Notes: a model not told the origin generated them from the letters alone. A stretch of 64,000 bases of DNA from a virus (IMGVR_UViG_3300038393_001585:709-64708), one strand, 5' to 3'. Shown: positions 2,750-57,959, counted from the stretch's first letter. A program made the numbers and translations.

Positions 2750-2750
2750 C

Positions 2751-7946: not shown

Positions 7947-9244
7947 ATCTTTTTCGTGTCTCCCTCGAACCAGTTCTGCATCGCGGTGCGGCCCCGGCCA
8001 TCCGCCTCGGGCATCATGTGCGCGTAGATCCGGAGTGTGATCGACGGATCCGCATGGCCCAGCCACCTCGAGACTGACACAACCGACTCACGCGCGTCCA
8101 GCTGCACGCTGGCGAACGTGTGCCGCAGCGAGTGGAAGCCCATCTCCCGGTCCTCCGCATACCGCTTGACGGTACGGAACCGGCCCGGCTTCCCCGCGAT
8201 CGGACGCTTCGTCACCACAGGCGGGTCGATCAGCCCGGCCGCCTCCAAGGCCGGCTTCCAGAGGGTGTCGTTGAAGTAGTCCCGCCGCCAGGCACCGCCC
8301 CGGGCCGCCGTCAGTATCAGCTCGAACGTCTGCGGCGCCCGCTCCTTGATCTCCTTCTCCGTCTCGCCCGCTTCGGGGTCTCCCCACGGCAGTGTCACCG
8401 CCGTCGCCGGCCAACGCGCCAAGTGCTCCTGCACCTTGGCCAACAGGTGGGCGGGGACCGGAACGGTCCGTGTCTTGCGGCCCTTCGGCAGGGCGAACAC
8501 GAGCTTCGAGCCGACCTTCTTCACCTGCCGCCGAACATGGATCACTTGGGCTTCGAAGTCGACGTCCTCGACCGCGAGCCCGAACACCTCGCCCTGCCGC
8601 AGCCCCGCACCGACACCGATATCGACGGCGAGCCGCACCCGGGGGTCGATCAGGGACCGCACCAGCAGGACCCGCTCGCGCGACCAGGCATTGGCCCGGG
8701 GCTCAGGGCGGGCAGGCGGGCGCACCGTCTTCTGTGAGCGGCAGTAGTTCTTCGTGATCCGTTCGTCATCGACCGCGGCCTGCAGGATCGCGGAGAGCGT
8801 CCCCCAGACATCGTTGACGGTGCCGGGGCCGAGCTGGGCGTTGAGCGTCTTCAGCCACGCCCGCAGCTGGGGAGTCTTGATCGTGTTCAGCGGATTGGAT
8901 CCCAGGTGGCTGAGGACGTGGTTCCAGACCTTGCCCTTGACCGTGGCCCTGGTGAGCGGGTCGGGATAGTTCTGGTTAGGCCACCAGTGCTCCTCGACGT
9001 ACTCTCGCAGCAGCATCGTGCCATCGCGCGGGTCGATGAACTCGCCGCGGGTGGACTCGTGCTGAGCCTTCGCCAGCCAGGCTCTAGCGCCGTCTACGCC
9101 GAGGAGCTTCTCGAAGCTGCGGTCACGCACTCCCGGCACGCCGGCCACCCGGTAGCGCTTGCCCTGACCGTTGCGTTCGGTGGGGATGGTCCGCTTGCCG
9201 TCGGGACCCTTCTTGAACCAGCGATCCTCGATATATCCAGCCAT
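7841..9244 (-). CDS. int: Tyrosine integrase
   Basis: GLRQGE, PKGRK, FHSLRH, LGH...TLRIY catalytic residues; N-terminal arm-binding and core-binding regions. Confidence 0.95.
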   Translation of the reverse strand: MAGYIEDRWFKKGPDGKRTIPTERNGQGKRYRVAGVPGVRDRSFEKLLGVDGARAWLAKAQHESTRGEFIDPRDGTMLLREYVEEHWWPNQNYPDPLTRATVKGKVWNHVLSHLGSNPLNTIKTPQLRAWLKTLNAQLGPGTVNDVWGTLSAILQAAVDDERITKNYCRSQKTVRPPARPEPRANAWSRERVLLVRSLIDPRVRLAVDIGVGAGLRQGEVFGLAVEDVDFEAQVIHVRRQVKKVGSKLVFALPKGRKTRTVPVPAHLLAKVQEHLARWPATAVTLPWGDPEAGETEKEIKERAPQTFELILTAARGGAWRRDYFNDTLWKPALEAAGLIDPPVVTKRPIAGKPGRFRTVKRYAEDREMGFHSLRHTFASVQLDARESVVSVSRWLGHADPSITLRIYAHMMPEADGRGRTAMQNWFEGDTKKISPAAPQDLEAVVPTASDAPQDDGAAASDALALVP

Positions 9245-17626: not shown

Positions 17627-17811
17627 TGGACCGCCTGATCCTCGCCGCGCCCGCCCTTATACCCGCCATCGGACTCCTCGCCGTCGGTATCTGGGCCGTC
17701 CTCCACAGCATCTTCGGCCACCGGCCCCGCAACCCCGCCGACGACGACCTCAGGACCTGCCGCCGCATCAACGCACTGCCCACCACCCAGCCCCGGAAGG
17801 AGAAGCCGTGA
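17623..17811 (+). CDS. Small membrane protein
   Basis: N-terminal TM, GTGA overlaps. Confidence 0.55.
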   Translation: MMDRLILAAPALIPAIGLLAVGIWAVLHSIFGHRPRNPADDDLRTCRRINALPTTQPRKEKP

Positions 17812-18626
17812 CCACCGCCAAGCCGTTGCCGCCGCACGGCACCGACGCCCGCTACAAGGGCAACCGCACCGGCACCCGGCCTCCCTGCCGGTGCCCCCAC
17901 TGCACCCGCGCCCACCGCCGCGCCGACCTGGAACGCGAGCTCCGCCGGCAGCGCGGCGAACGCAACCTCGTCCCCCGCGAGGAAGTCCTGCCCCACATCC
18001 AGATGCTCCGCGCCAGCGGCATGAGCCAGACCCTCATCGCCCGCCAGGCCGGCGTCTCCCAGGCCGTCATCAGCTACATCACCACCGGCCGCAACAAGAC
18101 CGTCCAGACGGAGAAGGCCCGCCGCATCCTCTCCGTTCAGCCCCGCCGCTTCGACGGCAACGCCGAACGACCCGCGCTCGGCTCCATCCGCCGGGTGCGC
18201 GCCCTGTACAGCCTCGGGCACAGCCGTGCCGACATCTCCGCCCTTAGCGGTCTGAGCTTCGCCAGCATCAGCCTCCTCGCCGAAGGCCGCTGGAAGATCA
18301 TCGACAACCAGAAGGCCGTTGCTCTCGCCACCGCCTACCGGCAGCTCGCCAACCGGCGCGGCACCAACTGGAAGAACGAGCGCCGGGCCGTCACCGAGGG
18401 CTGGCACGGCCCGCTCGCCTGGGACGACATCGACGATCCGAACGAGCAGCCCGACACCGAGGGCGTCGTCAGCCTCAAGCGGCACAAGGCCGTCATCGAC
18501 CTCGAGCTGGTCGCCCGCCGCACCTCCCAGGGCCACACCGCCGAGCAGATCGCCGAAGAGATCGGCTGCCACAAGCGCAGCGTCGTCCGCGCCCGCCGCC
18601 GAGCCGAGATGGGAGTGGCCGCATGA
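17808..18626 (+). CDS. Zn-finger plus multi-HTH DNA-binding protein
   Basis: CRCPHC; GMSQTLIARQAGVSQ; PLAWDDIDDP; C-terminal HTH. Confidence 0.7.
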   Translation: MTTAKPLPPHGTDARYKGNRTGTRPPCRCPHCTRAHRRADLERELRRQRGERNLVPREEVLPHIQMLRASGMSQTLIARQAGVSQAVISYITTGRNKTVQTEKARRILSVQPRRFDGNAERPALGSIRRVRALYSLGHSRADISALSGLSFASISLLAEGRWKIIDNQKAVALATAYRQLANRRGTNWKNERRAVTEGWHGPLAWDDIDDPNEQPDTEGVVSLKRHKAVIDLELVARRTSQGHTAEQIAEEIGCHKRSVVRARRRAEMGVAA

Positions 18627-31011: not shown

Positions 31012-31233
31012 ATGCTGAAGACCATCCGCCGCCGCCACCGTCTGGGGCTCGCCGCCGCGAACCGCGAGTGGATGAACGAGCGCCTGGACAACGTCGCCAG
31101 GCTCGTCGAGCAGATCCGCGAGCTCCCGGCGGGCGTGTCGGCGAAGGAACTGGCCGGCCAGCTGCTCACCGAGGCCGAAGAGGTGGCCGTCCGCGCGACC
31201 TACGTCGACGAACTGACCGCGAAGGCCGCCTGA
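31012..31233 (+). CDS. Small hypothetical protein
   Basis: GAGAGGA RBS. Confidence 0.55.
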   Translation: MLKTIRRRHRLGLAAANREWMNERLDNVARLVEQIRELPAGVSAKELAGQLLTEAEEVAVRATYVDELTAKAA

Positions 31234-31240
31234 CCCACCG

Positions 31241-31289
31241 GCCCCGGACCAGCCGCGAGGTGCCGGATCGAATCCGGCCCGGGGCGCCA
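31241..31289 (+). ncRNA. tRNA-like minihelix (acceptor stem, T-arm and CCA; no D or anticodon arm)
   Basis: GCCCCGG / CCGGGGC 7-bp stem, GCCGG-ATCGAAT-CCGGC T-arm, G discriminator, CCA. Confidence 0.6.
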
Positions 31290-31329
31290 ACCGCCACCCA
31301 CCATCCGTCCCGACCCCAGTGAGGTCGTC

Positions 31330-31521
31330 ATGCCCCGTTTCATCCTCTGGGCGCTCCTCGCCCTCTACCTGCTCGTTGTCGGCCTGTTCCCGGCCGCAGC
31401 CGCTCCGGTCGTTCTGGCCGCCGCGGGTGCCGGGATCGTCCTGGCGAAGCTCCCGCTGCTCGCCGTGGCCGGCGCCGTTGCCCTGTACCTCCGCCGTCCC
31501 GCCCGACCCGCTACCGCCTGA
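31330..31521 (+). CDS. Small Spd-like membrane protein
   Basis: 63 aa, almost entirely hydrophobic, upstream of traB-like gene. Confidence 0.6.
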   Translation: MPRFILWALLALYLLVVGLFPAAAAPVVLAAAGAGIVLAKLPLLAVAGAVALYLRRPARPATA

Positions 31522-31536: not shown

Positions 31537-32823
31537 GTGACCGCCATGCCCATCGAGAAGGTCAACGGCCACACCGTTGCCTCCCATGCTGAGCCGCGTA
31601 TCGATCCGCGTGCCGCAGCCGAGGTGGAGGCGATCCGGGCTCGCACCGCCGCCGAGACCAAGGCTCTCCTGACCGAAGCCGAGGGGAACAAGGCCCTGGC
31701 GCTCGAGCAGGCGAACCAGCTGCGACTGGAGAACGAGAAGCAGCAGCTCGCCAACGAGCGGGCCGCGCTCCGGTTCGAGCGCGAGAAGGCTGAGCAGCTC
31801 GCCAAGATCGCTGAGGCGAACACGAAGCAGGAAGCCGCGGAGCGCGCCGCTCGTGCCGCCCGCGAAGCCGACGACGCCCAGCGCGCCGAAGAGCAGAAGC
31901 AGGCCGCCGAGGTCGCCCAGGCGGACGACCGGTGGCGCCGGTACGCGCTCACCTTCTACGTGGTGTGCGCGATCGTGGCCCTGCCAGTGCAGGTTGCCGC
32001 GTTTTGGAGCCCGCGCGCCCCGTGGTTGATCGCCGCCCCGCTGATGCTCGAAGGCGGCGCCTGGGTCGTCCTCAAGGGCGCCGCCGCGGCGGTCGCCAAC
32101 CATCGGCCGCACTGGCACTACAGGCTCATCGCCTGGCTGCTCGCCGCGATCGCCGCCTGCATCAACCTGTGGCACGGCCTCAACGCGTTCGACCCGGCGA
32201 CCGCCATCGGCACCGCATTCGCCTCCATCGCCGGACCTGGCGTGTGGGACCTCCACGAGCACGGCCGCATCCGGAAGCGGGACGGCGTCCTCACCCGCAA
32301 GGAGCGCCGCGCGCAGCGGAAGGCCGAACAGGCTGAGGCCGCGCGGAAGGCCGCTGAGGAGAAGCGGCGTGCCGCCGAGAAGGAGGCCGCCGACAAGGCC
32401 GCGGCGGAGGCGCGGAAGCAGCTGGACGAGGCGCGGGCGAAGGCCTTCCCGAAGGTGTGGGAGCACGCCCTGAAGATCGCTGCCGCGCTCGGCGAGACGA
32501 CCGTCACTGAGTCCGTGTGGAAGCGCGCGCACCGCGACGTCGAGGGCGCCGACCCGTCCGAGTCCGCGGAGATTATCCGACTGCGCAACGCCGCCGAAGC
32601 GAGGGTCGAAGCGGCCCGCCAACAGCGCCCCGTCAGCACCGTCAGCAAGACCACGAACGCGCAGCGTGCATCGCAAGTGCCCGGGTCGAAGAAGCCCCGC
32701 GTCTACAACCCGCCCGCGCGCCGCGGCACCCGCACCAAGGGCGATGTGAAGTACACGCCCGCAGCCCGTCGCCAGGCCTCCATCACCGCCCGCCAGACCG
32801 CCGCCCAGAAGGACCAGACGTGA
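31537..32823 (+). CDS. SpdB2/DUF2637-like coiled-coil plus multi-TM transfer protein
   Basis: Long coiled coil, four hydrophobic segments, second coiled coil, basic tail; coupled to FtsK gene. Confidence 0.65.
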   Translation: MTAMPIEKVNGHTVASHAEPRIDPRAAAEVEAIRARTAAETKALLTEAEGNKALALEQANQLRLENEKQQLANERAALRFEREKAEQLAKIAEANTKQEAAERAARAAREADDAQRAEEQKQAAEVAQADDRWRRYALTFYVVCAIVALPVQVAAFWSPRAPWLIAAPLMLEGGAWVVLKGAAAAVANHRPHWHYRLIAWLLAAIAACINLWHGLNAFDPATAIGTAFASIAGPGVWDLHEHGRIRKRDGVLTRKERRAQRKAEQAEAARKAAEEKRRAAEKEAADKAAAEARKQLDEARAKAFPKVWEHALKIAAALGETTVTESVWKRAHRDVEGADPSESAEIIRLRNAAEARVEAARQQRPVSTVSKTTNAQRASQVPGSKKPRVYNPPARRGTRTKGDVKYTPAARRQASITARQTAAQKDQT

Positions 32824-34952
32824 GCATCGAGACGACCCCCAGCAGCAGCAACGACCCCGAGTGGGAGCGGCTCGTCGCCGGCTACCTCAACGAGCCGGTC
32901 AAGGAGCCCGCCATGCAGTCCGCCGGCGGCTCCGTCGTGAAGCCGTCGCTGCCCGCCGACCCGATGGGCGACACCCCGCTCACCCCCGCCTGGACGAAGA
33001 CCCGCGCCGGCTGGAAGAGCCGCACCCAGCTCGGCCGCGTCAACACCGTCCGCGGCTTCCGCAAGTGGCTGCGCCGTCAGACCACCCGGCACGGGCAGCC
33101 CGCGCAGATCTACCGAGGCACCGCCCGCGTCATCGTCTGGGTCCGCGGCGTCGAAGGCGTCGAAGTCGCCAAGGCCAAGCACGAAGCGCGCCGCGCCCAC
33201 CAGGAATACCGGCAGGCGCAGTGGGCCAACGGCAAGCGGCTCATGCCCGGCAGCGCCAAGGACAAGCTGTCCAAGGAGATGGATAAGGCCGCCGACGAGT
33301 CCGAGCGGGCCATGAGCAAGTACCGCAAGGCCCGCAAGGACGCCCGCACCCTGCAGTCCCTGCGCGCCGCCGCGGCCCTCACCCCGCTCGCCGCCGTCGA
33401 AGGCGCCGGCCTGTACCTGGGCGGTGGCCCCGGTGGCATCCTTGCCGCCGGCCTCACCCTCACCGGGCTCGCCCTCATCGGTCGCCGCACCAGCACGGGC
33501 GAACTGTGGTCGGACCGCGACGCGAAGATCGGCGACGGCGACCGGATGACCGAGACCATGCTGAACCGGGTCTACCAGGACGCCAAGGTCATCGGATCCG
33601 ACGACGTGCTGAAGCTGGTCACCCCGTGCACGCTCACCGCCGACGGGCAGGCCTGGCAGGTCGTGTTCGCTCTGCCGTCTGGGATCCCCGCGAAGAAGGC
33701 GCTCGGTGCACGTGACGGCCTCGCCAACGGCTTCGGTGTGTCCGCACAGCAGATCCACCAGACCCGAGGCGACCGCGAAGACCGCATACACCTCCGCGTC
33801 TCCCTGAAGCTGCCGTTCTCCGCCAAGCCCGGCAAGGGACCCCTCCTCGAAGCCGAGCGGGTCAACCTGTGGCAGCCCATCCCCATGGGCATCAACCTGC
33901 GCGGCGAGCCGGTATCCACGTCGTGGGTGGAGCGGTCCGGCCTGTTCGGCGGTGAGCCGGGAGCCGGGAAGTCCGCCGCGGCCAACGGTCTGCTCCTCGC
34001 CGCCGCCCTCGACCCGACCGTCCGCATGTACCTCGCCGACGGCAAGGCCGGCGCGGACATCACCCCGTTCGAGCCGATCGCCACCATGTACGACACCGAC
34101 GGCGATCCGGCCCGGCTCCTCGAAATCCTCGAGCACATCTGGGACGTGGAGATCAAGGAGCGTCGGGCGCTCGCCAAGGAGCACGGCTCCCGGAAGTTGA
34201 CCGAGGCCATGGCCGCCGCGGACCCGCGGGTTTGCCAGGCCGTCCTGCTGGTCGACGAGTGGTCGTCCTACGGTGCCGCCGCCGACCAGAAGACCCGGCA
34301 GGAGATGGAGCGGCTGCTCCGGCTGATCGTGCAGCAGGGCCGTGCGCTCGGCATCATCACACTGGCCGCCACCCAGAAGCCAGACAGCGACTCCGTGCCG
34401 ACCGGCATCCGCGACATCCTGTCCATCCGCTGGGCGATGCGCTGCCTCACCCCGCAGGCCTCCGACACGATCCTCGGCCAGGGGTACGCCTCCGCTGGGC
34501 ACAACGCGCAGGACATCCTGAAGTCGCAGCGCGGGGTGGGCATCTACATGGACGGTGAGGGCGCCGAGCCCGAGCTGGCCCGCGGCCACTACTACGACGA
34601 CGACGAGGTAGAGGCGATCCTGCGTCGGGCCTACGCGCTGCGGCAGGAAGCCGGCACGCTGCCCGTCGTCGCCGAGCCAGAGGTGACGATCCTCGACCAC
34701 CTCATCAAGGCTGCGTCCGCGACCGGCCGGGGCAACGTGACCCGCGCGGAGGTCTTCGCCTACCTCGCTGGCGTCGATGAGGAGTTCGTCCAGGCCGACG
34801 ACGAGAGCGACGCGCGCTACGCCTCCCGGGCCGGGACCGCCCTGAAGGACCGGCTCGCCGAACTCGAGGTCGACGTGCCGGCGGTGCAGTTCCCGCACGA
34901 CGGCAAGCGCGTGTGGGGCTGGACCCTGGACGCGCTCCAGAACGCCCGGTAA
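32820..34952 (+). CDS. traB: TraB-like FtsK/SpoIIIE DNA translocase
   Basis: Central TM pair, Walker A GEPGAGKS, Walker B LLVDEW, GRALGI..LAATQKP, C-terminal wHTH-like domain. Confidence 0.85.
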   Translation: MSIETTPSSSNDPEWERLVAGYLNEPVKEPAMQSAGGSVVKPSLPADPMGDTPLTPAWTKTRAGWKSRTQLGRVNTVRGFRKWLRRQTTRHGQPAQIYRGTARVIVWVRGVEGVEVAKAKHEARRAHQEYRQAQWANGKRLMPGSAKDKLSKEMDKAADESERAMSKYRKARKDARTLQSLRAAAALTPLAAVEGAGLYLGGGPGGILAAGLTLTGLALIGRRTSTGELWSDRDAKIGDGDRMTETMLNRVYQDAKVIGSDDVLKLVTPCTLTADGQAWQVVFALPSGIPAKKALGARDGLANGFGVSAQQIHQTRGDREDRIHLRVSLKLPFSAKPGKGPLLEAERVNLWQPIPMGINLRGEPVSTSWVERSGLFGGEPGAGKSAAANGLLLAAALDPTVRMYLADGKAGADITPFEPIATMYDTDGDPARLLEILEHIWDVEIKERRALAKEHGSRKLTEAMAAADPRVCQAVLLVDEWSSYGAAADQKTRQEMERLLRLIVQQGRALGIITLAATQKPDSDSVPTGIRDILSIRWAMRCLTPQASDTILGQGYASAGHNAQDILKSQRGVGIYMDGEGAEPELARGHYYDDDEVEAILRRAYALRQEAGTLPVVAEPEVTILDHLIKAASATGRGNVTRAEVFAYLAGVDEEFVQADDESDARYASRAGTALKDRLAELEVDVPAVQFPHDGKRVWGWTLDALQNAR

Positions 34953-43498: not shown

Positions 43499-43933
43499 AT
43501 GGGCACTCGTGGACCCATACCGGAGCGCTCCGAAGCGCGCCGCCGACGCAACAAGGATGACGGCCCGAAGCTGGCCCAGGCAGCGGCCGGGCCGCCGGTG
43601 GATCTGCCGGACCTGCCGGAGCCGGATCCGCTGTGGCATCCGATCGCCACCGACTGGTACCTGTCCCTGCGTGAGTCCGGGCAGGCCGTCTTCTATGAGC
43701 CGTCGGACTGGGCGATGGCCCGGTACGCTGCTGAGTTGATGTCCCGGGGCTTGTCCTCGGACCGGCCGCCGAACGGCCAGTACGTCTCGGCGCTCGACAG
43801 CGTGATGGCCCGCCTGCTGACGACCGAGGGGGACCGGCGTCGGGCGAGGATCGAGCTGGAGCGCAAGCCTGCCGGCCCGCAGCTGGCAGCGGTGAAGCCG
43901 CTGGACGCTTACCGTGACCTTGCTGGCGGCTGA
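43499..43933 (+). CDS. terS: Terminase small subunit
   Basis: MGTRGPIP.RS..RRRRN...WHPIA..WY..L..SGQ...TEGDRRRARIEL. Confidence 0.85.
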   Translation: MGTRGPIPERSEARRRRNKDDGPKLAQAAAGPPVDLPDLPEPDPLWHPIATDWYLSLRESGQAVFYEPSDWAMARYAAELMSRGLSSDRPPNGQYVSALDSVMARLLTTEGDRRRARIELERKPAGPQLAAVKPLDAYRDLAGG

Positions 43934-45656
43934 CGAGGAAGTCCCGGAGGTCGTCGAGCCGTTCACGATCGGTCCGACGTGGAAGCGTGGCCCGGACGGG
44001 CGGTTCATCCTGCCGGAGTACACGCTGGGCTGGCACTGCCTGGCCTGGACGGCGACGTACCTGCAGCACTACGTCGGTGCCTCGTGGCGGTACACGGCGG
44101 AGCAGGCCCGGCTGACGCTGTGGTGGTACGCCATGGATCCGGTGACGAACCGGTTCCTGTGGCGGGACGGCGTGATCCAGCGGCTGAAGGGCTGGGGCAA
44201 GGACCCGCTGATTGCGACCTGGTCGGCGTTCGAGTTCGTCGGCCCGTGCCGGTTCGGCGAGGTCGCCGACGAGGGCAACGAGTGGGGTGTTCCGGCTGGG
44301 CAGCCGCTGGGGGTGCAGCATCCGGCGGCGTGGGTGCAGATCGCTGCCGTGAGTCAGGACCAGACGCGGAACACGATGACGCTGTTCCCGTCGATCCTGT
44401 CGAAGCGGGCGATCGAGGAGTACCGCATCGACCTCGGCAAGGAGATCATCTACGCCGACAAGGGCCGGGCCCGGATCGAGGCGGTCACCTCGTCGCCGCG
44501 GGCGTTGGAGGGCGGCCGACCGACGTTCGTGTCGCTGGGGGAGACCCACCACTGGGTGGAGTCGAACCAGGGCCACGAGATGGCCGGGGTCATCGAGCGT
44601 AACGCGACGAAGAGCGCCGACGGTCAGGCACGGACGCTGGCGAACACGAACGCCTACGAGCCCGGCGAGGACAGCGTCGCCGAGCGGACGCGGGAGGCGT
44701 TCGAGTCGGCGGAGTCCGGGCGCGCGGTGGATACGGGCCTGTTCTACGACTCGCTGGAGGCTCCGGCTGAGGCGAAGCTCACCGAGGCCTGGATCGTGCC
44801 GACGCTGAAGGCGGTCCGCGGGGATTCGGTGTGGTTGGACATCGAGCGGTTGAAGGCGTCGATCCTCGACGTCCGCAACCCGCCGTCGCGGTCACGCCGG
44901 TTCTGGTTCAACCAGATCGTCGCGGCTGAGGATGCGTTCCTGGCCCGCTACGAGTGGGACGCCAACCCGCACGAGGGCCTCGACCTGGAACAGGGCGACG
45001 AGATCGTCCTGTTCTTCGACGGCTCCAAGAGTGACGACGCCACCGGCCTGGTCGGCTGCCGCATGTCGGACGGGCTGGTGAAGACCCTTGGCGTCTGGCA
45101 GCGCCCGGCGAACTGGCCTGGTGAGCGGCCGTGGCGGGTGCCGCGGGACGAGGTCGACGGAGTTGTCGACAACGTCTTCGCCCAGTACAAGCCGCTCGCG
45201 TTCTTCGCGGACCCGGGCGCCGGCCAGGACGACGCGGACGGCGAACGCTACTGGGACGGCTACATCGACGCGTGGGCGCAGCGGTATGGCAAGCGGCTGA
45301 AGCTGAAGGCTGTGAGCTCGGGGCACGGCCAGCACGCGGTGATGTGGGACATGCGGGACCGGCGCCGGCAGCAGGCCTTCACGGAGGCAGTGGACCGCTT
45401 CTATCGAGACGTGCTGGAGCGGCAGGTGCCGCATGACGGCCACAAGGTGCTGCGACAGCACATCTCGAACGCCCGGCGCCGCACGAACGCCTGGGGCTAC
45501 TCGATCGGCAAGGAGCATCGGGAGTCGGCTCGGAAGGTCGACTTGGCGGTGTGTGCGATCGGCGCGCGGATGCTGCGCCGCTTGGTCATGAACAGTCAGT
45601 TCTGGGTGAAGCGCTCTCGGGTGCGCGGTAGGGGACGGGTGGTGGTGCTGCGGTGA
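43914..45656 (+). CDS. terL: Terminase large subunit
   Basis: RLKGWGKDP Walker A, LGETHH, FFDGSKSDDATG and KVDLAV nuclease motifs. Confidence 0.95.
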   Translation: MTLLAADEEVPEVVEPFTIGPTWKRGPDGRFILPEYTLGWHCLAWTATYLQHYVGASWRYTAEQARLTLWWYAMDPVTNRFLWRDGVIQRLKGWGKDPLIATWSAFEFVGPCRFGEVADEGNEWGVPAGQPLGVQHPAAWVQIAAVSQDQTRNTMTLFPSILSKRAIEEYRIDLGKEIIYADKGRARIEAVTSSPRALEGGRPTFVSLGETHHWVESNQGHEMAGVIERNATKSADGQARTLANTNAYEPGEDSVAERTREAFESAESGRAVDTGLFYDSLEAPAEAKLTEAWIVPTLKAVRGDSVWLDIERLKASILDVRNPPSRSRRFWFNQIVAAEDAFLARYEWDANPHEGLDLEQGDEIVLFFDGSKSDDATGLVGCRMSDGLVKTLGVWQRPANWPGERPWRVPRDEVDGVVDNVFAQYKPLAFFADPGAGQDDADGERYWDGYIDAWAQRYGKRLKLKAVSSGHGQHAVMWDMRDRRRQQAFTEAVDRFYRDVLERQVPHDGHKVLRQHISNARRRTNAWGYSIGKEHRESARKVDLAVCAIGARMLRRLVMNSQFWVKRSRVRGRGRVVVLR

Positions 45657-47086
45657 CGACGACCATCCCTGATCTGCCGCTTCTGACGCTGTCGGATGAC
45701 GAGCGCCAGCTGCTCACGGCGCTCCGCACGGACCTCCTCGGCTGCCGGTTCAAGCTGGAGCTGCTGGACGCCTACTTCAACGGCGAGCAGATCGTGCGCG
45801 ACCTCGGCATCAGCATCCCGCCGCAGTTGCAGCGCCTGCACACGGTGATCGGCTGGCCGAGGATCGGCGTGGAGTCCCTCGAGCAGCGCCTGGACCTGGA
45901 GGGCTTCCGTTGGGCGGACGGTTCGGACGCCTCCGACCTGGAGGAGATCGCGGAGTCGAACGACCTGTACGACGAGGCGAGCTTGGCCCACCTGGACGCC
46001 CTGACTTACGGCCGCGAGTACGTGGCGGTCGGCTCGGGCGAGGCCGGTGATCCGCCGCTCATCACCTTCGAGTCGCCGCTGGACATGACGATGTTCTGGG
46101 ATGCGCGGCTGCGGATGGCGACGGCGGCTCTCCGCGAGTCTGTCGAGGACGGCGTGCGGATCGCCACGCTGTACCTGCAGGACCAGACCGTGTACGCGGC
46201 GGAGACCAGCGACGGCTGGGAGGTTTTCGACCGGGACCTGCACAACTTGGGCATGGTGCCGGTGCTGCGGATGGCGAACCGGCAGCGGACCGCGGACCGG
46301 GTGGGTAAGTCGGAGATCACGCCCGAGGTCATGGCCATCACGGACGCGGCCTGCCGCCGGCTGATGGGCATCGAGGTCGCGGCGGAGTTCTTCGGCGCAC
46401 CGCAGCGGTACATCCTCGGCGCTTCAGAGTCGGCGTTCCAGGATGCGGAGGGCAACACCAAGTCGGCCTGGGAGACGTACATCGGCCGGGTGCTGGCGTT
46501 GGAGCGGGACGAGGATGGCAACGTGCCGACGGTGGGTGCGTTTACGGCGCACGATCCGTCCGGACAGACGAAGATCATCGACCTGTATGCCCGGATCATG
46601 GCGTCGCAGCTGTCTGTGGCGCCGCACGTCCTCGGCTATACCAGCGACAACCCGGCCAGCGCGGACGCGATCCGCTACGCGGACAATGCGCAGATCAAGA
46701 AGGCAGAGCGCCGCATCCGCCGCTTCTCGGCGACGCACCGGGACGCGATGCGGCTCGCGCTGTGGTTCCGTGACGGGGAGCCGCCGGACAAGTCTCGCCG
46801 CATCGAGTGCATCTGGCGGAACCCGGCGACCCCGACCCTCGCCGCCCAGGTCGACGCGGTCACGAAGCTCGTGACGACCGGCATCCTGCCCGCGGACTCG
46901 GATGTCGCGCTGGAGATGGCCGGCCTCACCGAGGACCAGCGTCGCCGGGTGGCGGCCGAGCGGCGGCGTAGCGCTGGCGCCGCGGCGAGCACGCAGATCA
47001 TGGAGCGGCTCGCCGCGCTGAACCAGCAGACTGAGCCGCTGCCGCCGGTGCAGGAGGTGACCGGTGGCGACAACGGTCTCGGATAG
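45653..47086 (+). CDS. Portal protein (SPP1 gp6-like)
   Basis: AYFNG...GWPRIGV...ALTYGR...RM.NR...G.SEI...NPASADA. Confidence 0.9.
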   Translation: MTTTIPDLPLLTLSDDERQLLTALRTDLLGCRFKLELLDAYFNGEQIVRDLGISIPPQLQRLHTVIGWPRIGVESLEQRLDLEGFRWADGSDASDLEEIAESNDLYDEASLAHLDALTYGREYVAVGSGEAGDPPLITFESPLDMTMFWDARLRMATAALRESVEDGVRIATLYLQDQTVYAAETSDGWEVFDRDLHNLGMVPVLRMANRQRTADRVGKSEITPEVMAITDAACRRLMGIEVAAEFFGAPQRYILGASESAFQDAEGNTKSAWETYIGRVLALERDEDGNVPTVGAFTAHDPSGQTKIIDLYARIMASQLSVAPHVLGYTSDNPASADAIRYADNAQIKKAERRIRRFSATHRDAMRLALWFRDGEPPDKSRRIECIWRNPATPTLAAQVDAVTKLVTTGILPADSDVALEMAGLTEDQRRRVAAERRRSAGAAASTQIMERLAALNQQTEPLPPVQEVTGGDNGLG

Positions 47087-47843
47087 CGGCGACGCTGCGA
47101 ACCGGTACCGGGCTGCTCAGATCGGCCTGACACGGCTGCTGGTACGGGACGTGCGCGGCCTGCGGCGGCTGATCCTGCCCTCGCGGCTGCGGGAGAGCGT
47201 GCCGGACTGGCTGACCGCGGTGAATGCGATCGTCGACCAGTACGCGCGTACCTCCGCCTCTCTGGCGGCGGAGTTCTATGACGCCCAGCGTGAGGCGGCC
47301 GGCGTGCCCGGAACCTTCACCGTGCCTGTCGCTGATCCGCCTCCGCCGGAGCAGGCGGGGGCGTCGCTCCGCTGGGCGACGAAGGACCTGTGGCCGCGGG
47401 ATCCGGAGGATCCGAAGACCACGGACGCGCAGCGTGAGCCGCTGGATGTGCGACTGGCGCAGGCGGAGAAGAAGGCCGAGCAGGTGGCGCAGAAGCTGGT
47501 CACCGATACGGGACGCGGCACTGTCCAGGAGGCGGTGCGGCAGGACCGGCAAGCCACCGCCTGGGCACGCTCCGCAGCGTTGGGCGCTTGCGCGTTCTGC
47601 AAGCTGCTCGCCGCGCGCGGGGCGGTGTACAAGCGGGACACGGCGGATTTCCGGGCGCACGACGGATGCCATTGCGGCGTGGTCCCGGTGTTCAAGGGGC
47701 AGCGGTTCGAGCTGTCTCCGCATGCACGCGAGTGGGAGCGCATCTACCGCGACTTCGCGGCAGGCCACCCCGGCAACCAACTTCGCCTGTTCAGGCAGGC
47801 GCTGGCCGAGCACGACAGCAATCCGCTGCCGGGCTCGAACTGA
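47064..47843 (+). CDS. MuF/VG15-like minor head or maturation protein
   Basis: WAR...ACAFC.LLA.RG.VY...HDGCHC. Confidence 0.75.
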   Translation: MATTVSDSGDAANRYRAAQIGLTRLLVRDVRGLRRLILPSRLRESVPDWLTAVNAIVDQYARTSASLAAEFYDAQREAAGVPGTFTVPVADPPPPEQAGASLRWATKDLWPRDPEDPKTTDAQREPLDVRLAQAEKKAEQVAQKLVTDTGRGTVQEAVRQDRQATAWARSAALGACAFCKLLAARGAVYKRDTADFRAHDGCHCGVVPVFKGQRFELSPHAREWERIYRDFAAGHPGNQLRLFRQALAEHDSNPLPGSN

Positions 47844-47899
47844 CCAACCCCTAGCCGCCCTGGAGGCGGCTATCTCTGCCCCTGGAGGGCCACTTCACC

Positions 47900-48490
47900 A
47901 TGCCCGAGAACGAGGAGACCCCCGAGGTCGTCGAGGAGCCGCAGGAGCCCGAGCCCGCCCCGGAGGCGGAGGGCGCCGAAGAGGAGCCGTTCGACCGGAA
48001 GCGCGCCGAGGCTGCGCTGAAGAAGAAGAACTCCGAGGCGGAGAACCTCCGCAAGCGGCTGAAGGAACTGGAGCCCCTCGCTAAGAAGGCGCAGGAGCTG
48101 GAGGACGCGCAGAAGTCCGAACAGGAACGCCTGTCGGAGAAGCTCACCGCTGCCGAGAAGCGCGTGCTCGCCTTCCAGCAGCGCGCGGTTCGCTCGGAGG
48201 TCAAGGCCCTGGCCGCCGCCGAGTTCGCCGACCCCGAGGACGCGCACGCATTCCTCAGCCTCGACTCCTACGTGACCGAGGACGGCGACGTCGATACGGA
48301 CGCCATCCAGCGAGACCTCAAAGACCTGCTGAAGCGCAAGCCGCACCTGGCCCGCCAGGTCGACACCTCCCCGCGCACCCCGCGCCCGGACCACACGCAG
48401 GGCTCCTCGGGCAACGGCAATCGATCCACTTCCGAACCGTCGGCGGTGTTCGCCGACTTCATGAAGGGCGCCCTCACTCGGGGGCGCTGA
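47900..48490 (+). CDS. Scaffolding protein
   Basis: Acidic N-terminus, coiled coil, KPHLA...P.PD..QG; directly before capsid gene. Confidence 0.8.
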   Translation: MPENEETPEVVEEPQEPEPAPEAEGAEEEPFDRKRAEAALKKKNSEAENLRKRLKELEPLAKKAQELEDAQKSEQERLSEKLTAAEKRVLAFQQRAVRSEVKALAAAEFADPEDAHAFLSLDSYVTEDGDVDTDAIQRDLKDLLKRKPHLARQVDTSPRTPRPDHTQGSSGNGNRSTSEPSAVFADFMKGALTRGR

Positions 48491-48505
48491 GAGAGGTAGC
48501 CCTCC

Positions 48506-49462
48506 ATGGTTGCAACCAACCCCATCAAGCTGAGCGACGTCGACCCGACGTTTCTCCCGCCCACTCTGACGGCCCCGATCTTCGAGAAGTCCGTCGAGCA
48601 GAGCGCCGTCATGAGCCTCGCCCGGCGGGTGCCGCTGTCCATGTCGGCGAACACCGCAGTGCCCGTCCCGCTGGACGTGCCGACGGCAGACTGGGTGGAC
48701 CAGGCCGGCCGTAAGCCGCTGTCCACCGGTGGCGTCGACATCAAGCAGATGTCCGGCAAGAAGATCGCCGTCATGATCCCGGTCGCGATGGAGGTCGTCG
48801 AGTCCAACGCGGCGGGCCTGTGGACCCAGCTGCAGAACGACCTGCCGACCGCGTTCTCCCGCGCCTTCGACCGGGCGACGATCCACGGCCGCACCATGAA
48901 GGGCGCCACCGGCCCGTTCCCGGACTACCTGGCCATGACGACCAAGGAGGTCGTCCTCGGCACGACCGGCCAGTCCACGGGCGGCATCTGGACCGACCTG
49001 GTCAACGGCATGGAAGCCATCATCGACGACGACTGGGACTACACCGGGACCGTCGCCGACAACCGGCTCAAGCCGAAGCTGCTGAAGGCCACCGACACCA
49101 CCGGTCAGCCCATCTTCGTCGACACCACCCAGCCGGGAACCGGTGCGGCGCTGGCGGGCACCCTGGTCGGCGAGCCGGTCGCCTACTCCCGCAGCGTCTC
49201 CGGCAAGGTGCGCCGCCAGTCCACCTCGGTCGACTCGGGTCTGCGCGCGATTGGCGGGGACTTCTCCCAGGCTGCCTACGGCGTGGGTATGGACATCTCC
49301 GTCAAGATCAGCCGTGAGGCGACGTACATCGACGAGGACGGCGGCGTGCACTCGGCGTTCCAGGAGAACCTGGTGCTCCTGCTCGCGGAGGCGTACTACG
49401 GCTTCGTCCTCGGCGACCCGGAGGCGTTCGTGCGGTACGTGGCGACCGCCGGGGCCTCGTGA
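48506..49462 (+). CDS. Major capsid protein (HK97 fold)
   Basis: ADWVDQAGRKP...KKIAV.IPV..EV...D.A.I.G...FQENLV. Confidence 0.9.
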   Translation: MVATNPIKLSDVDPTFLPPTLTAPIFEKSVEQSAVMSLARRVPLSMSANTAVPVPLDVPTADWVDQAGRKPLSTGGVDIKQMSGKKIAVMIPVAMEVVESNAAGLWTQLQNDLPTAFSRAFDRATIHGRTMKGATGPFPDYLAMTTKEVVLGTTGQSTGGIWTDLVNGMEAIIDDDWDYTGTVADNRLKPKLLKATDTTGQPIFVDTTQPGTGAALAGTLVGEPVAYSRSVSGKVRRQSTSVDSGLRAIGGDFSQAAYGVGMDISVKISREATYIDEDGGVHSAFQENLVLLLAEAYYGFVLGDPEAFVRYVATAGAS

Positions 49463-50469
49463 CCGGAGCGGGCTCGGGCCGGGCGATGCGTGTCATCGCC
49501 CGGCTGCACGGCTATCCGCCGCGGCACAACGCGGGCGCGGAGTGGATGGCCCACTCCATGCTGCGGGCGCTTGTGGCGCGCGGCCACGACGTGCAGGTGT
49601 GGCTGTCGCGGTACTCGGGCGATGGCAAGCCCTACGACCTGGACGGCGTGCACGTGGTGCCGCTCCAGGCTCGCCTGGACTTCGCCACCGCGGTCCGGAA
49701 GGCCGACGTCCTCGTCAGCCACCTGGAGAACGTCCCGTCCACTGCGGCGCTGGCCCGCGGCTACGGCAAGCCGGTGGTGGCGATCTGCCACAACACGCAC
49801 CGGCCCACCTTCCGCGACGTCGCATCCGGCGGCGTGAGCCTGGCGGTGCTCAACAGCCAGTGGATGGAGCGCGAGGCGGAGCTGTTCTTCGCCGAGTACC
49901 CGAAGGCTGTCCGGCCGGCTCAGACGCTGATCGTGCGGCCTCCGGTGTTCGCCGACGAGTACCGCACGAAGCCGGGCGCGAAGGTGACACTGGTCAACTG
50001 CAATGCCGACAAGGGCGGCAAGGTGCTGGAGGCTGTCGCCCGCCGGATGCCCGACACCGAGTTCCTGGCGGTGGCTGGCGCCTACGGTGAGCAGATCCTG
50101 CCGGACCTGCCGAACGTCGAGATCGTGCAGCAGGTGCCGGGCAGCGAAATGCGGGACCGCGTGTACGCCAAGACGCGTGTGCTGCTGATGCCGAGCGTCT
50201 ACGAGTCGTGGGGCCGGGCCGGTGTCGAGGCGCTCGCCTCCGGTATCCCGGTCGTTGCGCACCCCACGCCGGGGCTGTGCGAGTCGCTCGGCGAGGCCGG
50301 CGTGTTCGTCAACCGCACCGACCTTGAGGGCTACGAGGCGGTCCTGCGCAGGCTGCTGCAGCCCGACGAGTACCGGCTGGCGTCGAAGCGAGCTCGGGCC
50401 CGGTCGGCGGAGCTGGATCCGACGAAGGAACTGGCCGCCTGGTGCGATGCGGTGGAGGCCCTGGCCTAG
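49459..50469 (+). CDS. GT4-family glycosyltransferase
   Basis: GAEWMAH.ML..L..RGH.V; NADKGG; LLMPS.YESWGRAGVEA..SGIPVVA. Confidence 0.9.
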   Translation: MTGAGSGRAMRVIARLHGYPPRHNAGAEWMAHSMLRALVARGHDVQVWLSRYSGDGKPYDLDGVHVVPLQARLDFATAVRKADVLVSHLENVPSTAALARGYGKPVVAICHNTHRPTFRDVASGGVSLAVLNSQWMEREAELFFAEYPKAVRPAQTLIVRPPVFADEYRTKPGAKVTLVNCNADKGGKVLEAVARRMPDTEFLAVAGAYGEQILPDLPNVEIVQQVPGSEMRDRVYAKTRVLLMPSVYESWGRAGVEALASGIPVVAHPTPGLCESLGEAGVFVNRTDLEGYEAVLRRLLQPDEYRLASKRARARSAELDPTKELAAWCDAVEALA

Positions 50470-50478
50470 GAGGTAGCG

Positions 50479-50895
50479 ATGACGTTCGTACCGCCGACCG
50501 CCGAACAGCTCGGCCTCTACCTCGACCTGGCGGAGATCAACGGGGACCGGGCCGACCTGCTCATCACTCAGGCGGTCGCCCTGTGCGAGACGGTCGTCAA
50601 GCCGCTGCCGGACCAGGCCACCGCGGTGGTTCTATCAGTGGCCGGGCGTGGCTACGTCAACCCGCAACAGGTGTCCTACGAGACGATCGGCCCGATGTCG
50701 GTGCAGCGCCCCCAGGGTTCTGGCGGGCTGTATCTGACGAAGGCGGACCGGACCGCGCTTAAGTCGCTCGCCGGCCGCGGTGGTGCGTTCACCGTGGACC
50801 CGACCCCGGTCGCCGCAGACGTATCGCCGTCGTACCCGATCGACGACGACTACGGTCCGCCGTTGGACTGGGAGCCGGGCTGGGGGTGGGTGTAG
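50479..50895 (+). CDS. Head-to-tail adaptor
   Basis: Position; AVVLSVAGR...NP...ETIGP...LYLTKADR. Confidence 0.75.
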   Translation: MTFVPPTAEQLGLYLDLAEINGDRADLLITQAVALCETVVKPLPDQATAVVLSVAGRGYVNPQQVSYETIGPMSVQRPQGSGGLYLTKADRTALKSLAGRGGAFTVDPTPVAADVSPSYPIDDDYGPPLDWEPGWGWV

Positions 50896-51258
50896 ATGCC
50901 CGGCCCGTACCCGTTCGGTGAGACGGTGCGGATCATCCGCACCGGCCCCTCGCCGGGGAGGGACGACCGCGGGCACCCGTTGCCCGGCCCGGACGAGTCG
51001 TTCGACGTTCCCGGCTGCGTCGTCACCCCCCGAGCGGAGACACCGCAGGTCGGTGGCGCCGAGCAGCAGGGCAGGGACACGGTCATCGTCGGATGGACGG
51101 TGTACGCACCCTCCGGGACAGTGCTGCGCACCACGGACAAGGCCCTGGTTCGCGGCGTCGTCTGCGACATCACGGGCGAGCCCGGCGACTGGGGCCGCTC
51201 CCCGTTCACGGGCACCGCCGGCCCGGTGCAGTTCGCGGCGGACCGGGTGACCGGCTAG
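50896..51258 (+). CDS. Head closure / stopper protein
   Basis: Position; DDRG...VPGC...TVYAP...D.ALVRG...G.P..W. Confidence 0.75.
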   Translation: MPGPYPFGETVRIIRTGPSPGRDDRGHPLPGPDESFDVPGCVVTPRAETPQVGGAEQQGRDTVIVGWTVYAPSGTVLRTTDKALVRGVVCDITGEPGDWGRSPFTGTAGPVQFAADRVTG

Positions 51259-51575
51259 CCGCGGGCCTGCTCCACCGCGGCGACGAGCTTCTCGACAGCG
51301 TCGTTGTTCTTGTACCGGAAGGACAGGCTGTGGGGATCCTCGTATGAGGGCCGGCTGCCCATCTTCAGGCCCTGGTGCTCACCGGCCGCTCCGCTACCTG
51401 CCAGCAGGAACTGCACGTAGCCGTTGATGAACCGGTTACCGCGCTTGAACCGCGTCGAGATGACGTCGGCAGCGCGGATACGAACGGGCGCCGGCCTGAA
51501 GCCGAGTCCCTTTTTCGTGATGGTGATCCATTCACCGTCGAAGCTGATGGTGCCGAGTACACCTGTCACTTCCAT
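51255..51575 (-). CDS. DUF4429-like (PH-like) moron, opposite strand
   Basis: GTISFDGEWITITK...RI....I....F......NGYVQF. Confidence 0.65.
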   Translation of the reverse strand: MEVTGVLGTISFDGEWITITKKGLGFRPAPVRIRAADVISTRFKRGNRFINGYVQFLLAGSGAAGEHQGLKMGSRPSYEDPHSLSFRYKNNDAVEKLVAAVEQARG

Positions 51576-51610
51576 GTCCGCCCCTTGGCACGCGAGTTGT
51601 AGGAGGGGAT

Positions 51611-51937
51611 ATGGCAGCACGGTTCAAGATGTCCCGTAAAGGAGTCGGCGAGCTCCTTCGGTCGGAGATGATCCGCGCCGATCTGGTCCGCCGTGCTCAC
51701 GCGATCGAGGGTGCTGCAGTAGGGCTGTCCCCGGTCGGGGGTGCGAGTGACCCGCACCCTGGCGAGTACAAGAGCAGCTGGTCCGTGGACAGCACGGCAC
51801 GGGGCGGGCGGCGCCGCGACCGAGCGGTGGCCTACGTCCGCAACGGCGCCTACTACGCCCGTTGGGTCGAGTACGGCACTGAGCGCGTTCCCGCTCACCA
51901 CGTGCTGCTGCGTGCAGCCCAGGCGGGCGGTCGCTGA
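51611..51937 (+). CDS. Tail completion / gp10-like protein
   Basis: AGGAGG RBS; GVGELLRS...YARWVEYGT. Confidence 0.75.
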   Translation: MAARFKMSRKGVGELLRSEMIRADLVRRAHAIEGAAVGLSPVGGASDPHPGEYKSSWSVDSTARGGRRRDRAVAYVRNGAYYARWVEYGTERVPAHHVLLRAAQAGGR

Positions 51938-52335
51938 TGACCGATGTCGGATCAGTCGATGTCGAGCTGGCGGTCATGGTCGCGCTGAGGGCCTTCCTCG
52001 GCGCTGGTGTGGTAGTCCGCGACGAGCTCGACAACGACCTGGCCAACGAACTGCCGACAGTTCAGGTGCAGGTGGCGGGCGGCGACGACGACGGGTTCCG
52101 GCTCGATAGGGCCTTCGTCGACATCGACGTCTACCACTCCACCCGGGCCGATGCGATCGCACTCGCAGCGACCATCCGGGGCTGGGTCCTCACGGTGCTG
52201 CGCGGCAGTGTTACCGCTCAGGCTGTGTTCGGCCGGACGGGCACCATTTCCCGGCCGGCTGTCCGCCCCTACGAGAACACCGCGCTCCGCCGTGTCGGGG
52301 CGACCTACGAGATCAACTGTCACCCGGTCTCCTGA
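51937..52335 (+). CDS. Tail terminator protein
   Basis: Position; LPTVQV..AGG.DD...LD...VDIDVY. Confidence 0.75.
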   Translation: MTDVGSVDVELAVMVALRAFLGAGVVVRDELDNDLANELPTVQVQVAGGDDDGFRLDRAFVDIDVYHSTRADAIALAATIRGWVLTVLRGSVTAQAVFGRTGTISRPAVRPYENTALRRVGATYEINCHPVS

Positions 52336-52406
52336 CCGGCTGGGCCCGCGCCGGACCCATAACCCGACCCCGCCTGCCGCGGGGTCTTCGCATGTCTGGA
52401 GACCCA

Positions 52407-52997
52407 ATGGTCAACATCACCCGTGCGGCAGACCTGACCGTCATCGGTGCCAACGGTGGCGGCTGGGTGGCGGCGGTCGGCACGACTGCCCCCGACTCGC
52501 CGCTGACGCAGCCGCTGTCCCCGTGGGAGCCGCTCGGCGCCATCAGCGACGACGGCCTCGTCTACGGCTTCGACGAGGACAGCCAGGAGTTCACCCCGTG
52601 GGGCCTCACCAGCCCGTTCCGCACGCAGATCACCAAGTCGGTGCGGACGTTCAAGGTGACGCTGTGGGAGACGGCCCGCGTCGCCGTCCAGTCGATCATG
52701 TACCGGATTCCGGCCGCCGACCTCAACCCGGACGGCACCAGCGGCCTCACGAGCTTCGCGGAGACCGCGTCGCCGACCCCGGACCGGCGCGCCTGGTGGT
52801 TCGCGGTCATCGACGGTGACACCGCCCGCGGCTTCTACGTCCCCAGCGGCGAGATCTCCGACCGCGCCGACGTGACGTTCAAGCAGGACGAGATGAGCGG
52901 CTACGAGATCACCGTCACCGCCTACCCGGACAGTGCCGGCAACACCGTCTACCACACCGACAAGCTGCCCGCGACGCCCGGCTACACGGGCTCCTGA
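52407..52997 (+). CDS. Major tail protein
   Basis: LGAISDDG...E.TPWG...EITVTAYPD. Confidence 0.85.
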   Translation: MVNITRAADLTVIGANGGGWVAAVGTTAPDSPLTQPLSPWEPLGAISDDGLVYGFDEDSQEFTPWGLTSPFRTQITKSVRTFKVTLWETARVAVQSIMYRIPAADLNPDGTSGLTSFAETASPTPDRRAWWFAVIDGDTARGFYVPSGEISDRADVTFKQDEMSGYEITVTAYPDSAGNTVYHTDKLPATPGYTGS

Positions 52998-53089
52998 ACT
53001 GGTGGGCGGGCCGCGAACCTGTCGGCGCGGGCCCGGCCCGCCCACCTCAACCCTCACTGCCCGCGCCCTGAACGAAGGAGGCCCGCGCC

Positions 53090-53503
53090 GTGGCTGCCAA
53101 CGCACGAACCGCCCACCGCAACACGCAGAGGAACCGCCCCAACCAGCGCCCGCAGGACAACGAGCGCCCCGCTACCAACCAGGCCACCGAGCCCACCGAG
53201 GCCGAGGCGCAGGAGATCGAGGCCGAGGGCCAGTACGTCACGGCCGAGCTGTGCGGTGAAGAGGTTCAGATCGTCCCGCCCCTGGCATGGCGGGCTTCCT
53301 GGCAGCGCCTGCTGAACCAGGGCAACCTCGACGCGTTCGCGTCGAAGGTGCTGCACCCTGACGACTACGAGCTGTACGAAGAGCTCGACCCGACGCTCGC
53401 CGAGTTCATGGAGTTCACCACGGACGCCGCCCAGCGGTCGGGTGAGAGCCTGGGGGAATCGCGTGGACCGGCTCCGTCGTCGAGGCGCACGCGGAGGCGG
53501 TAG
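53090..53503 (+). CDS. Tail assembly chaperone G
   Basis: Between major tail protein and tape measure; ends near slippery site. Confidence 0.8.
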   Translation: MAANARTAHRNTQRNRPNQRPQDNERPATNQATEPTEAEAQEIEAEGQYVTAELCGEEVQIVPPLAWRASWQRLLNQGNLDAFASKVLHPDDYELYEELDPTLAEFMEFTTDAAQRSGESLGESRGPAPSSRRTRRR

Positions 53504-53913: not shown

Positions 53914-53932
53914 CGCCATGGAGGGAGGCTCC

Positions 53933-57949: not shown

Positions 57950-57959
57950 GGAGGCGCCC

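Follow-up and report, generated by a model that had tools for sequence, protein, structure and literature searches.

A Conserved tRNA-like Intercistronic RNA in the Transfer Operons of Streptomyces Conjugative Elements, a Candidate Processing Site for Host tRNA-End Enzymes

Introduction

Transcripts may carry, between or behind their coding parts, structures that resemble tRNAs closely enough to be handled by the enzymes that mature tRNA ends. This is how RNase P and RNase Z release the mascRNA and MEN-beta tRNA-like RNAs from the MALAT1 and NEAT1 transcripts. In mitochondria, tRNAs or tRNA-like structures stand between coding regions, and the cuts made by RNase P and RNase Z define the ends of the mRNAs; the principle of tRNA-like punctuation is known from both settings. 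Bacterial RNase P, RNase Z, and the CCA-adding enzyme also accept minihelices composed of an acceptor stem and a T arm. Cutting of a different kind is the activity of the hammerhead ribozymes, namely site-specific self-cleavage.

A search of Rfam 15 and of the full-text literature for a family of the tRNA-punctuation kind in bacterial mobile elements found none. This report describes an element of 49 nt in a stretch of viral DNA of 64,000 nt (IMGVR_UViG_3300038393_001585:709-64708), referred to here as the window, and the family of structures to which this element belongs. We present it as a putative processing element of tRNA-like form, newly recognized in the conjugative operons of bacteria.

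The Element of the Window and Its Gene Neighborhood

By its gene content, the record, a single contig of 64.7 kb nearly all of which is covered by the window, resembles a phage-plasmid or else a prophage that carries a conjugation cassette. Positions 43914-62000 hold a full siphovirus-type head and tail module, including the genes for the terminase large subunit, the portal, the protease, the major head protein, and a 1350-aa tape measure, and two tyrosine integrases (2718-3779 and 7841-9244) are present beside a TraB-type conjugation module (32517-34952). The sequencing runs that contain the stretch (n = 12) are all soil or rhizosphere DNA metagenomes.

The element occupies positions 31241-31289 of the plus strand, and a direct reading of the window agrees base for base with the layout proposed in the original prediction. 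Written as RNA, it opens with the 5' strand of an acceptor-like stem, P1 (GCCCCGG, 31241-31247), which pairs with 31279-31285, and continues through a junction, J1/2 (ACCA, 31248-31251), into a mini-hairpin, P2 (GCC/GCGA/GGU, 31252-31261), of the three-way fold. Then comes a T-arm-like hairpin, P3 (GCCGG/AUCGAAU/CCGGC, 31262-31278), which in this copy is extendable to 7 bp with a CGA triloop, and, contiguous with it, the 3' strand of P1 (CCGGGGC, 31279-31285). The tail reads G-C-C-A, with the G at 31286 and the CCA at 31287-31289. The fold originally proposed, with the geometry of a tRNA acceptor stem and T arm, has held, in that the three-way junction is the minimum free energy structure (-28.8 kcal/mol in ViennaRNA) and all three helices covary. 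Folding energy itself is not used as evidence because the z-scores are ordinary for DNA of 70% G+C: z is -0.72 with the flanks included, 50 of 200 shuffles folding equally well, and -1.94 for the element alone.

Regarding the genes around it, all on the plus strand, the element begins 7 nt past the TGA (31231-31233) of a 73-aa ORF (31012-31233, GC3 0.95), for which no Pfam match was found, and stands 44 nt ahead of a 63-aa ORF (31330-31521). The C-rich spacer before the latter (31290-31329) carries a ribosome-binding site, GAGG, ahead of the start codon. There follow a 428-aa ORF (31537-32823) and, in the same operon, a TraB-like FtsK/SpoIIIE DNA translocase (PF01580, E 3.6e-8; phrog_1358, E 3.5e-103), given here as the longest ORF, 32517-34952, with a true start that probably lies later than 32517. 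The placement first given to the element, directly upstream of the spd/traB genes, is roughly right, although the 63-aa and 428-aa ORFs stand between it and the TraB-like gene.

Homologues and Distribution

When 2.2 kb around the site were compared by blastn with 72,556 plasmids, the element was matched only through about 80 bases (window 31220-31303) in three Streptomyces plasmids, whereas in the remaining six matched records only the 428-aa downstream ORF aligned. In all three the match falls in the same place, the intergenic gap between two ORFs of ~60 aa upstream of traA/traB. A short-query search added many further Streptomyces plasmids, including pCQ3, pCQ4, and pFP11, and an exact pattern applied to one genome per species returned more than 120 loci, every one with the full architecture, about 90 of them from Streptomycetaceae and a few from other actinomycetes.

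These elements, termed type I to separate them from two sister types discussed below, were used exclusively to build a covariance model, R1, from 42 sequences and 17 base pairs, with E-values taken from a shortened calibration. R1 scores the element of the window, its sole copy there, at 62.5 bits (E ~4e-9). Applied more widely, it yields 114 matches, 106 of them distinct, in 95 loci; 41 copies in 34 contigs of IMG/VR, most of these contigs being 50-90 kb long; and 1-5 copies in each of the 24 positive genomes among 151 sampled Streptomyces species. A second, weak match in the window (17862-17902, plus strand, 19.3 bits, E 0.2), with the hairpin GCACCGG...CCGGUGC, is probably due to chance, since it lies inside an ORF (17808-18626). 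The family numbers over 100 copies across Streptomyces plasmids, integrated conjugative elements, and phage-plasmid-like contigs, and its patchy distribution among genomes fits the cargo of mobile elements. The genes that flank the homologues have diverged past recognition at the DNA level, whereas the element itself still aligns. A covariance search in Streptomyces mobile elements had been proposed as a check on the original prediction, and it did return covarying homologues, in the form of the 106 distinct copies.

No description of the motif was found in the full-text literature, and in Rfam 15 there was no match at the element at E<=10 and none in the window at the gathering score; this is apparently a family of tRNA-shaped RNA structures not yet catalogued. 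A small self-cleaving ribozyme was considered and rejected on the same Rfam result and on the junctions of the element, which are of 0 nt or unconserved.

The number of homologues also bears on whether the element is a chance hairpin or a decayed tRNA or att fragment that has no function. Such a view would agree with the unremarkable folding z-score and with the likeness of the 3' half to tRNA 3' ends, and yet it is exceedingly improbable in the face of more than 100 syntenic, covarying homologues kept despite diverged flanking genes. That the element is not a simple att remnant, as was originally argued from the presence of both acceptor strands, is supported by further observations: the copies occur several to an operon, there is no adjacent integrase (both are more than 20 kb away), and a search for host tRNA identity in 5 host genomes found none within 2 mismatches of 23 bases.

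Covariation and Helix Detail

Across the 106 distinct copies, 98% of the cells in the 17 pairs are standard pairs, and double-sided changes occur at 7 of these pairs (44 cells), a level reached by none of 500 shuffles; sliding the 3' partners by 1-3 columns lowers the pairing to 10-59%. Most copies were retrieved by the exact pattern, which fixes part of P3 and of the 3' strand of P1, so that the informative copies are those found by the model only. The genus sample retrieved by the model alone is 97% paired, with 8 of the 17 pairs double-changed and again no shuffle in 500 reaching that value. Because most copies came from the pattern search and all share common descent, the shuffle statistics make the sequences seem more independent than they are; the alignments, moreover, are fitted to the model.

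In P1, 99% of the cells are paired across the 106 copies and changes from C-G to U-A occur, the first pair being G-C in 102 of them. The length of J1/2 is variable in the family, from 4 to 8 nt, and a four-way subfamily adds a hairpin of 7-8 bp at this point. P2 has a consensus of a 3-bp stem under a GYGAN loop and switches between GCC/GGC and GGC/GCY, with 26 double changes: its middle pair is C-G in 71 copies and G-C in 26, and its outer pair G-C in 70 and G-U in 27. Three stem pairs of P3 exchange C-G/G-C or A-U in copies missed by the exact pattern, and the variants in the model-only copies include GCGGG/CCCGC, GCCCG/CGGGC, GCCGC/GCGGC, and GCGGA/UUCCGC. The loop of P3 reads AUCGAAU in 61 of the 106 copies, and several of its variants raise the palindromy of the arm (GGAUC-N-GAUCC). 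No covariation was seen between the P2 loop and the T-like loop, so an elbow-like tertiary contact between them is speculation.

Strand, Position between Cistrons, and Neighboring Genes

Over the 106 copies, G-U and U-G appositions together number 42, against 11 for A-C and C-A, an asymmetry that is meaningful only for the strand shown. With flanking genes called by a simple GC3-based caller, a same-strand flanking gene is present at 97 of the 106 copies and any opposite-strand one at only 9. A same-strand stop codon lies 5-21 nt ahead of P1 in 49 of the 106, and for 33 copies the next start codon comes 32-49 nt past P1; a second mode of this distance falls at 71-133 nt. This second mode is accounted for by another conserved GC hairpin, GGCCGC-loop-GCGGCC followed by CNCCGCAC, which occurs in a subset of loci (L012, L085, L117, L119, L130, and others) 4-30 nt after the element. 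Strand bias, the excess of G-U pairs, and the spacing from stop and start codons together mark the element as an intercistronic structure of the sense mRNA, and it is very probable that we are dealing with a conserved, sense-strand, structured RNA family.

These results weigh against a function in duplex DNA, in which the palindrome would be a site for TraB (similar to clt or TRS), a site for a repressor, or a cruciform. The element is indeed palindromic and near traB, and the CCGGA-type words in its arms presumably resemble the TraB recognition word of pSVH1, GACCCGGA. Nevertheless, this reading is very improbable, as G-U exceeds A-C by about 4 to 1, which is meaningless for a duplex, the orientation is tied to the gene strand, the P2 hairpin and the junction are asymmetric, and stem variants with different half-sites share one operon. 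The operon in L009, for example, has three copies with differing stem variants, one behind each small ORF, an arrangement not expected of a palindrome that co-evolves with a single DNA-binding protein. A recognition array of the clt/TraB type was rejected separately, the window having a single inverted-repeat element two genes upstream of traB.

The same position would also suit a structured intercistronic RNA that works without tRNA enzymes, a REP-like cluster of hairpins that tunes the neighboring small genes by blocking 3' exonucleases, by pausing or attenuating transcription, or by shielding the gap from Rho. The sense orientation just past stop codons, the several copies per operon, the very stable and GC-rich fold, and the loop variants that raise palindromy all agree with this, as do the C-rich, U-poor downstream spacer (46% C and 10% U in the 30 nt downstream, for the family) and the second GC hairpin of the subset. 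What a generic hairpin leaves unexplained is the near-invariant loop and the GYGA motif on covarying stems, together with the fixed length of 12 bp, the host-like purine-C tail, and the sister types with a canonical T-loop that are described in the following sections; we regard the REP-like explanation as possible, if somewhat unlikely. A classical intrinsic terminator was rejected, because a U-tract follows the element in only 2 of 90 copies, and a consensus scan for promoters and terminators found no such site at the copy in the window.

The flanking genes vary widely, a diversity that suits a general signal for punctuation better than a leader for one gene, and most of them have no family assignment. 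The families seen are NUDIX, DUF2637, FtsK/SpoIIIE, DUF6284, DUF6251, DUF3307, and the RapZ C-terminal domain; we take FtsK/SpoIIIE, NUDIX, and DUF2637 to be typical of actinomycete conjugative elements. The most frequent downstream neighbor is DUF6284, in 8 of 43 cases. Genes with the RapZ C-terminal domain (PF22740) flank 4 of the 85 examined copies, for instance in L025 and L019, and since RapZ is an RNA-binding adaptor, these neighbors are candidate RNA partners.

The last finding is one argument for a specific protein, encoded by the element's carrier or by the host, that would bind the RNA and control the translation or decay of the neighboring cistrons. Conserved GYGA and AUCGAAU loops on covarying stems are typical of hairpins that are recognized in this way, but no single family accompanies the element, its neighbors being diverse, and the tRNA-like dimensions and the sisters with true T-loops point to the host tRNA machinery instead. 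A dedicated binding protein is, in our judgment, distinctly unlikely.

Rfam models run on 40 related loci gave only two families at the gathering score, the hammerhead, discussed below, and gntR-DTE RNA (RF02989). The latter is found on the strand of the tRNA-like elements and ahead of them, where it apparently forms the leader of the transfer operon, at L070:7424-7581 (minus strand, 99 bits) and L036:3681-3767 (minus strand, 73.5 bits); the window has no copy at the gathering score.

Resemblance to tRNA: Dimensions, Loop, and Tail

The stack of acceptor and T stems is constant at 12 bp, divided as 7+5 in type I and 6+6 in type II, and in the copy of the window as in the family types it forms a minihelix, that is, a 12-bp coaxial acceptor and T stem with contiguous 3' strands. 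As in tRNA, 12 nt separate the loop from the discriminator in all forms. The resemblance of the loop is partial. The A-U-C-G-A-A-U of the window agrees with a T-loop at positions 55-58 and has A, not U, at position 54; in the family, A54 is found in ~104 of 106 copies and A58 in ~80, with G58 in about a quarter. Of the T-loop that was originally assigned, the length of 7 nt stands, but A takes the place of U54 and only about three quarters of the copies retain A58.

Following P1, the family has A in 87 copies and G in 16, with purine-C in 103 of 106 and a tail consensus of A/G-C-(U/G)-C. The encoded CCA, which had been counted among the defining features, has to be given up: it occurs in 3 of the 106 copies (ACCA twice, and GCCA once, in the window), and its presence in the window is therefore incidental. 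The comparison with host genes is more informative. In genome G002, all 31 distinct tRNA genes (L137-L166) encode C74, and what follows the discriminator is a full CCA in 7, CC in 5, and C alone in 19. With its purine-C tail matching this host C74, the family tail looks like that of host pre-tRNA genes. On the other side of the stem, the base at position -1 is A or C, whereas RNase P prefers U there.

The element is not a tRNA, as it is without the D arm and the anticodon arm, and type I is missed by both tRNA detection methods: ARAGORN finds 0 tRNA genes in the window, and RF00005 has no match at E<=10 across the whole record of 64.7 kb. In genome G002, 67 tRNAs were detected, and neither of its two elements is among them. 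R1 nevertheless matches a genuine tRNA(CAA) gene of 74-76 nt over its whole length, with scores of 39-41 bits; this gene is present in 7 of the 151 Streptomyces genomes (L225-L230, around positions 1505-1582 of each). This gene has AT-rich conserved flanks, an ACUU tail, and no long variable arm, a feature expected of bacterial tRNA-Leu. It may be the evolutionary source of the elements, or the tRNA that they mimic. When the 3' half of the element is compared by blastn with isolated phage genomes, annotated tRNA genes come out on top, although the matches are weak (84% over 37 nt, E 0.2).

Sister Types and Hammerhead Ribozymes

Two related types occur in the same operons as type I. Type II elements are 41-44 nt long and combine a 6-bp acceptor-like stem, a bulge of 10-13 nt (AUGGUCGUAG), a covarying 6-bp stem under a canonical UUCGAYU T-loop, and an AC tail as in type I. 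Their model, R2, has 10 strong copies and cross-matches the type I copies, including that of the window, at 20-34 bits. On the plus strand, type II elements are located at L013:1447-1487, L066:2666-2707 and 3034-3074, and L082:2906-2945; on the minus strand, at L051:4233-4273, L080:1528-1569, L094:323-366, L110:5325-5366, L026:6544-6596, and L091:990-1051. Type III elements are 63-64 nt long; besides an acceptor stem of 7 bp and a T stem of 5 bp under a UUCGAAY loop, they possess a long anticodon-like hairpin. They are located on the minus strand at L091:492-555, which ARAGORN calls a tRNA-Gly(ccc), and at L037:1223-1285.

The two operons with type III elements also contain type II hammerhead ribozymes (RF02276, cut-off 37 bits), at L037:1504-1566 (minus strand, 50.1 bits) and L091:722-785 (minus strand, 32.1 bits), and the same hammerhead sequence is present in the IMG/VR locus L191:6814-6870 (minus strand). 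The upstream stop codon is either overlapped by the ribozyme or stands immediately in front of it, and ~4-12 nt separate the end of the ribozyme from the ribosome-binding site that comes next. In L037 and L091, the hammerhead fills one gap between stop codon and ribosome-binding site, and the adjoining gaps hold type I, II, and III elements. This interchange of position, which concerns two related operons, suggests that cutting of the transcript between cistrons is the selected function.

A Putative Processing Site in the Transfer-Operon mRNA

Since the enzymes that mature tRNA ends are known to accept minihelices, their action at the borders of P1 is the most economical mechanism for such cutting, and the type I element may well be a processing site for host tRNA-end enzymes in the mRNA of the transfer operon, a reading that we favor tentatively. 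According to this proposal, the element would be transcribed within the sense polycistronic mRNA of the transfer/spread operon, with the tiny GYGA(N) hairpin in place of the D and anticodon arms, and would be taken by host tRNA-end enzymes for the minihelix of a pre-tRNA. Cleavage by RNase P would fall on the 5' side of G31241, and on the other side RNase Z or exonucleases would remove what follows G31286, leaving a 3' end on which the CCA-adding enzyme could act. The operon transcript would in this manner be cut between cistrons, which would set the ends and the stability of the adjoining messages, and an RNA of roughly 46-50 nt would be released.

The sequences show that the element is conserved and covaries, that its strand and position are kept, that its dimensions are tRNA-like, and that some of its relatives have true T-loops; cleavage by RNase P and RNase Z, with the consequences described, is inferred. 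Several findings count against the involvement of these enzymes, namely A54, the G58 of about a quarter of the copies, the palindromic loop variants, the A or C at position -1, and the failure of RF00005 and ARAGORN to detect type I. The original prediction had offered a processing signal as one possibility, and this part of it has gained indirect support from the sense intercistronic site and from the hammerhead in the equivalent gap of related operons; the cleavage itself is putative.

Its other suggestion was a released decoy for toxins that modify tRNA ends or for sensors of uncharged tRNA. In a wider form of this idea, the minihelix, once freed from the mRNA and possibly given a CCA end, would act in trans and, as a decoy or sponge, occupy proteins whose targets are the acceptor ends or elbows of tRNAs: toxins or defense nucleotidyl- or pyrophosphotransferases encountered in a new host, or tRNA-binding regulators. 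The element does mimic the acceptor stem, T arm, discriminator, and C74 that such enzymes see, its carriers invade new hosts, and several copies and types may share one operon. At 1-5 copies per genome, however, the number is low, the strict intercistronic position is more simply explained by a role in cis, and among the neighbors examined there is no toxin or antitoxin-like gene, which leaves the decoy decidedly improbable. A combined scheme, in which interchangeable cleavage modules (the three minihelix types and occasionally a hammerhead) punctuate the transfer operons, and the CCA-tailed minihelices so released serve as decoys for toxins or defense enzymes in the new host, is likewise a long shot.

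Significance

If the host tRNA-end enzymes do cut at these sites, the family would represent tRNA-like punctuation of bacterial mRNAs on a family-wide scale. This punctuation would operate within the poorly understood transfer and spread operons of Streptomyces plasmids, integrated conjugative elements, and phage-plasmids, where it would account for the individual expression levels of the many tiny spd-type genes that share one long operon, and the catalogue would gain three related RNA motifs. The system also gives experiments a convenient handle, as the element is about 50 nt long, has clear stems to mutate, and can be followed by pock formation or transfer as a read-out. Even if the step that involves tRNA enzymes is wrong, there is a well-supported new structured RNA that marks actinomycete conjugative elements.

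Comparison with Known Systems

Among the systems that share individual traits with the element, REP/BIME palindromes and mRNA-stabilizing hairpins are likewise short, GC-rich, multi-copy, located after stop codons, and biased in orientation. REPs are, however, genome-wide with hundreds of copies, whereas type I is confined to operons of conjugative elements, at 1-5 copies per genome, and has dimensions and a tail specific to tRNA. The clt/TraB sites are also cis elements of transfer modules, with GC-rich words containing CCGGA. A clt locus consists of several direct repeats, each of 7-9 bp, arrayed beside the 3' end of tra, and it acts as duplex DNA (PMC3583192), in contrast to the covariation of RNA type and the G-U pairs of type I.

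The hammerhead RF02276 is closer in setting, as it occupies the same type of gap between stop codon and ribosome-binding site in the same operons, L037 and L091. It differs in that it is self-cleaving and has a conserved catalytic core; type I is without this core and would need a trans-acting enzyme.

In structure, the close systems are the genuine tRNAs of Streptomyces, above all tRNA(CAA) and also tRNA-Arg. With tRNA(CAA) the element shares an identical acceptor stem (GCCCCGG/CCGGGGC), a near-identical T arm, A73, and an encoded C74, and it is distinguished from it by its length of 46-49 nt, by A54, by having no D or anticodon arm, and by its location inside protein-coding operons.

With regard to the proposed function, mascRNA and MEN-beta (RF01684) likewise place a tRNA-like fold inside a longer transcript, where it is a processing signal. 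The mascRNA model is the best Rfam match to type II, at an insignificant 21-22 bits (E 3-5), and has no match to the type I copy of the window. In addition, mascRNA is vertebrate, nuclear, and a full cloverleaf, whereas the Streptomyces elements occur in multiple copies and separate the cistrons of bacterial operons. Plant mitochondrial t-elements and mitochondrial tRNA punctuation have the same placement, with the order stop codon, element, next gene; they are organellar, whereas the Streptomyces elements are bacterial and their cleavage is putative. Although it is a member of none of these groups, the type I element is, in its proposed mode of action, nearest to mascRNA/MEN-beta, the plant mitochondrial t-elements, and mitochondrial tRNA punctuation.
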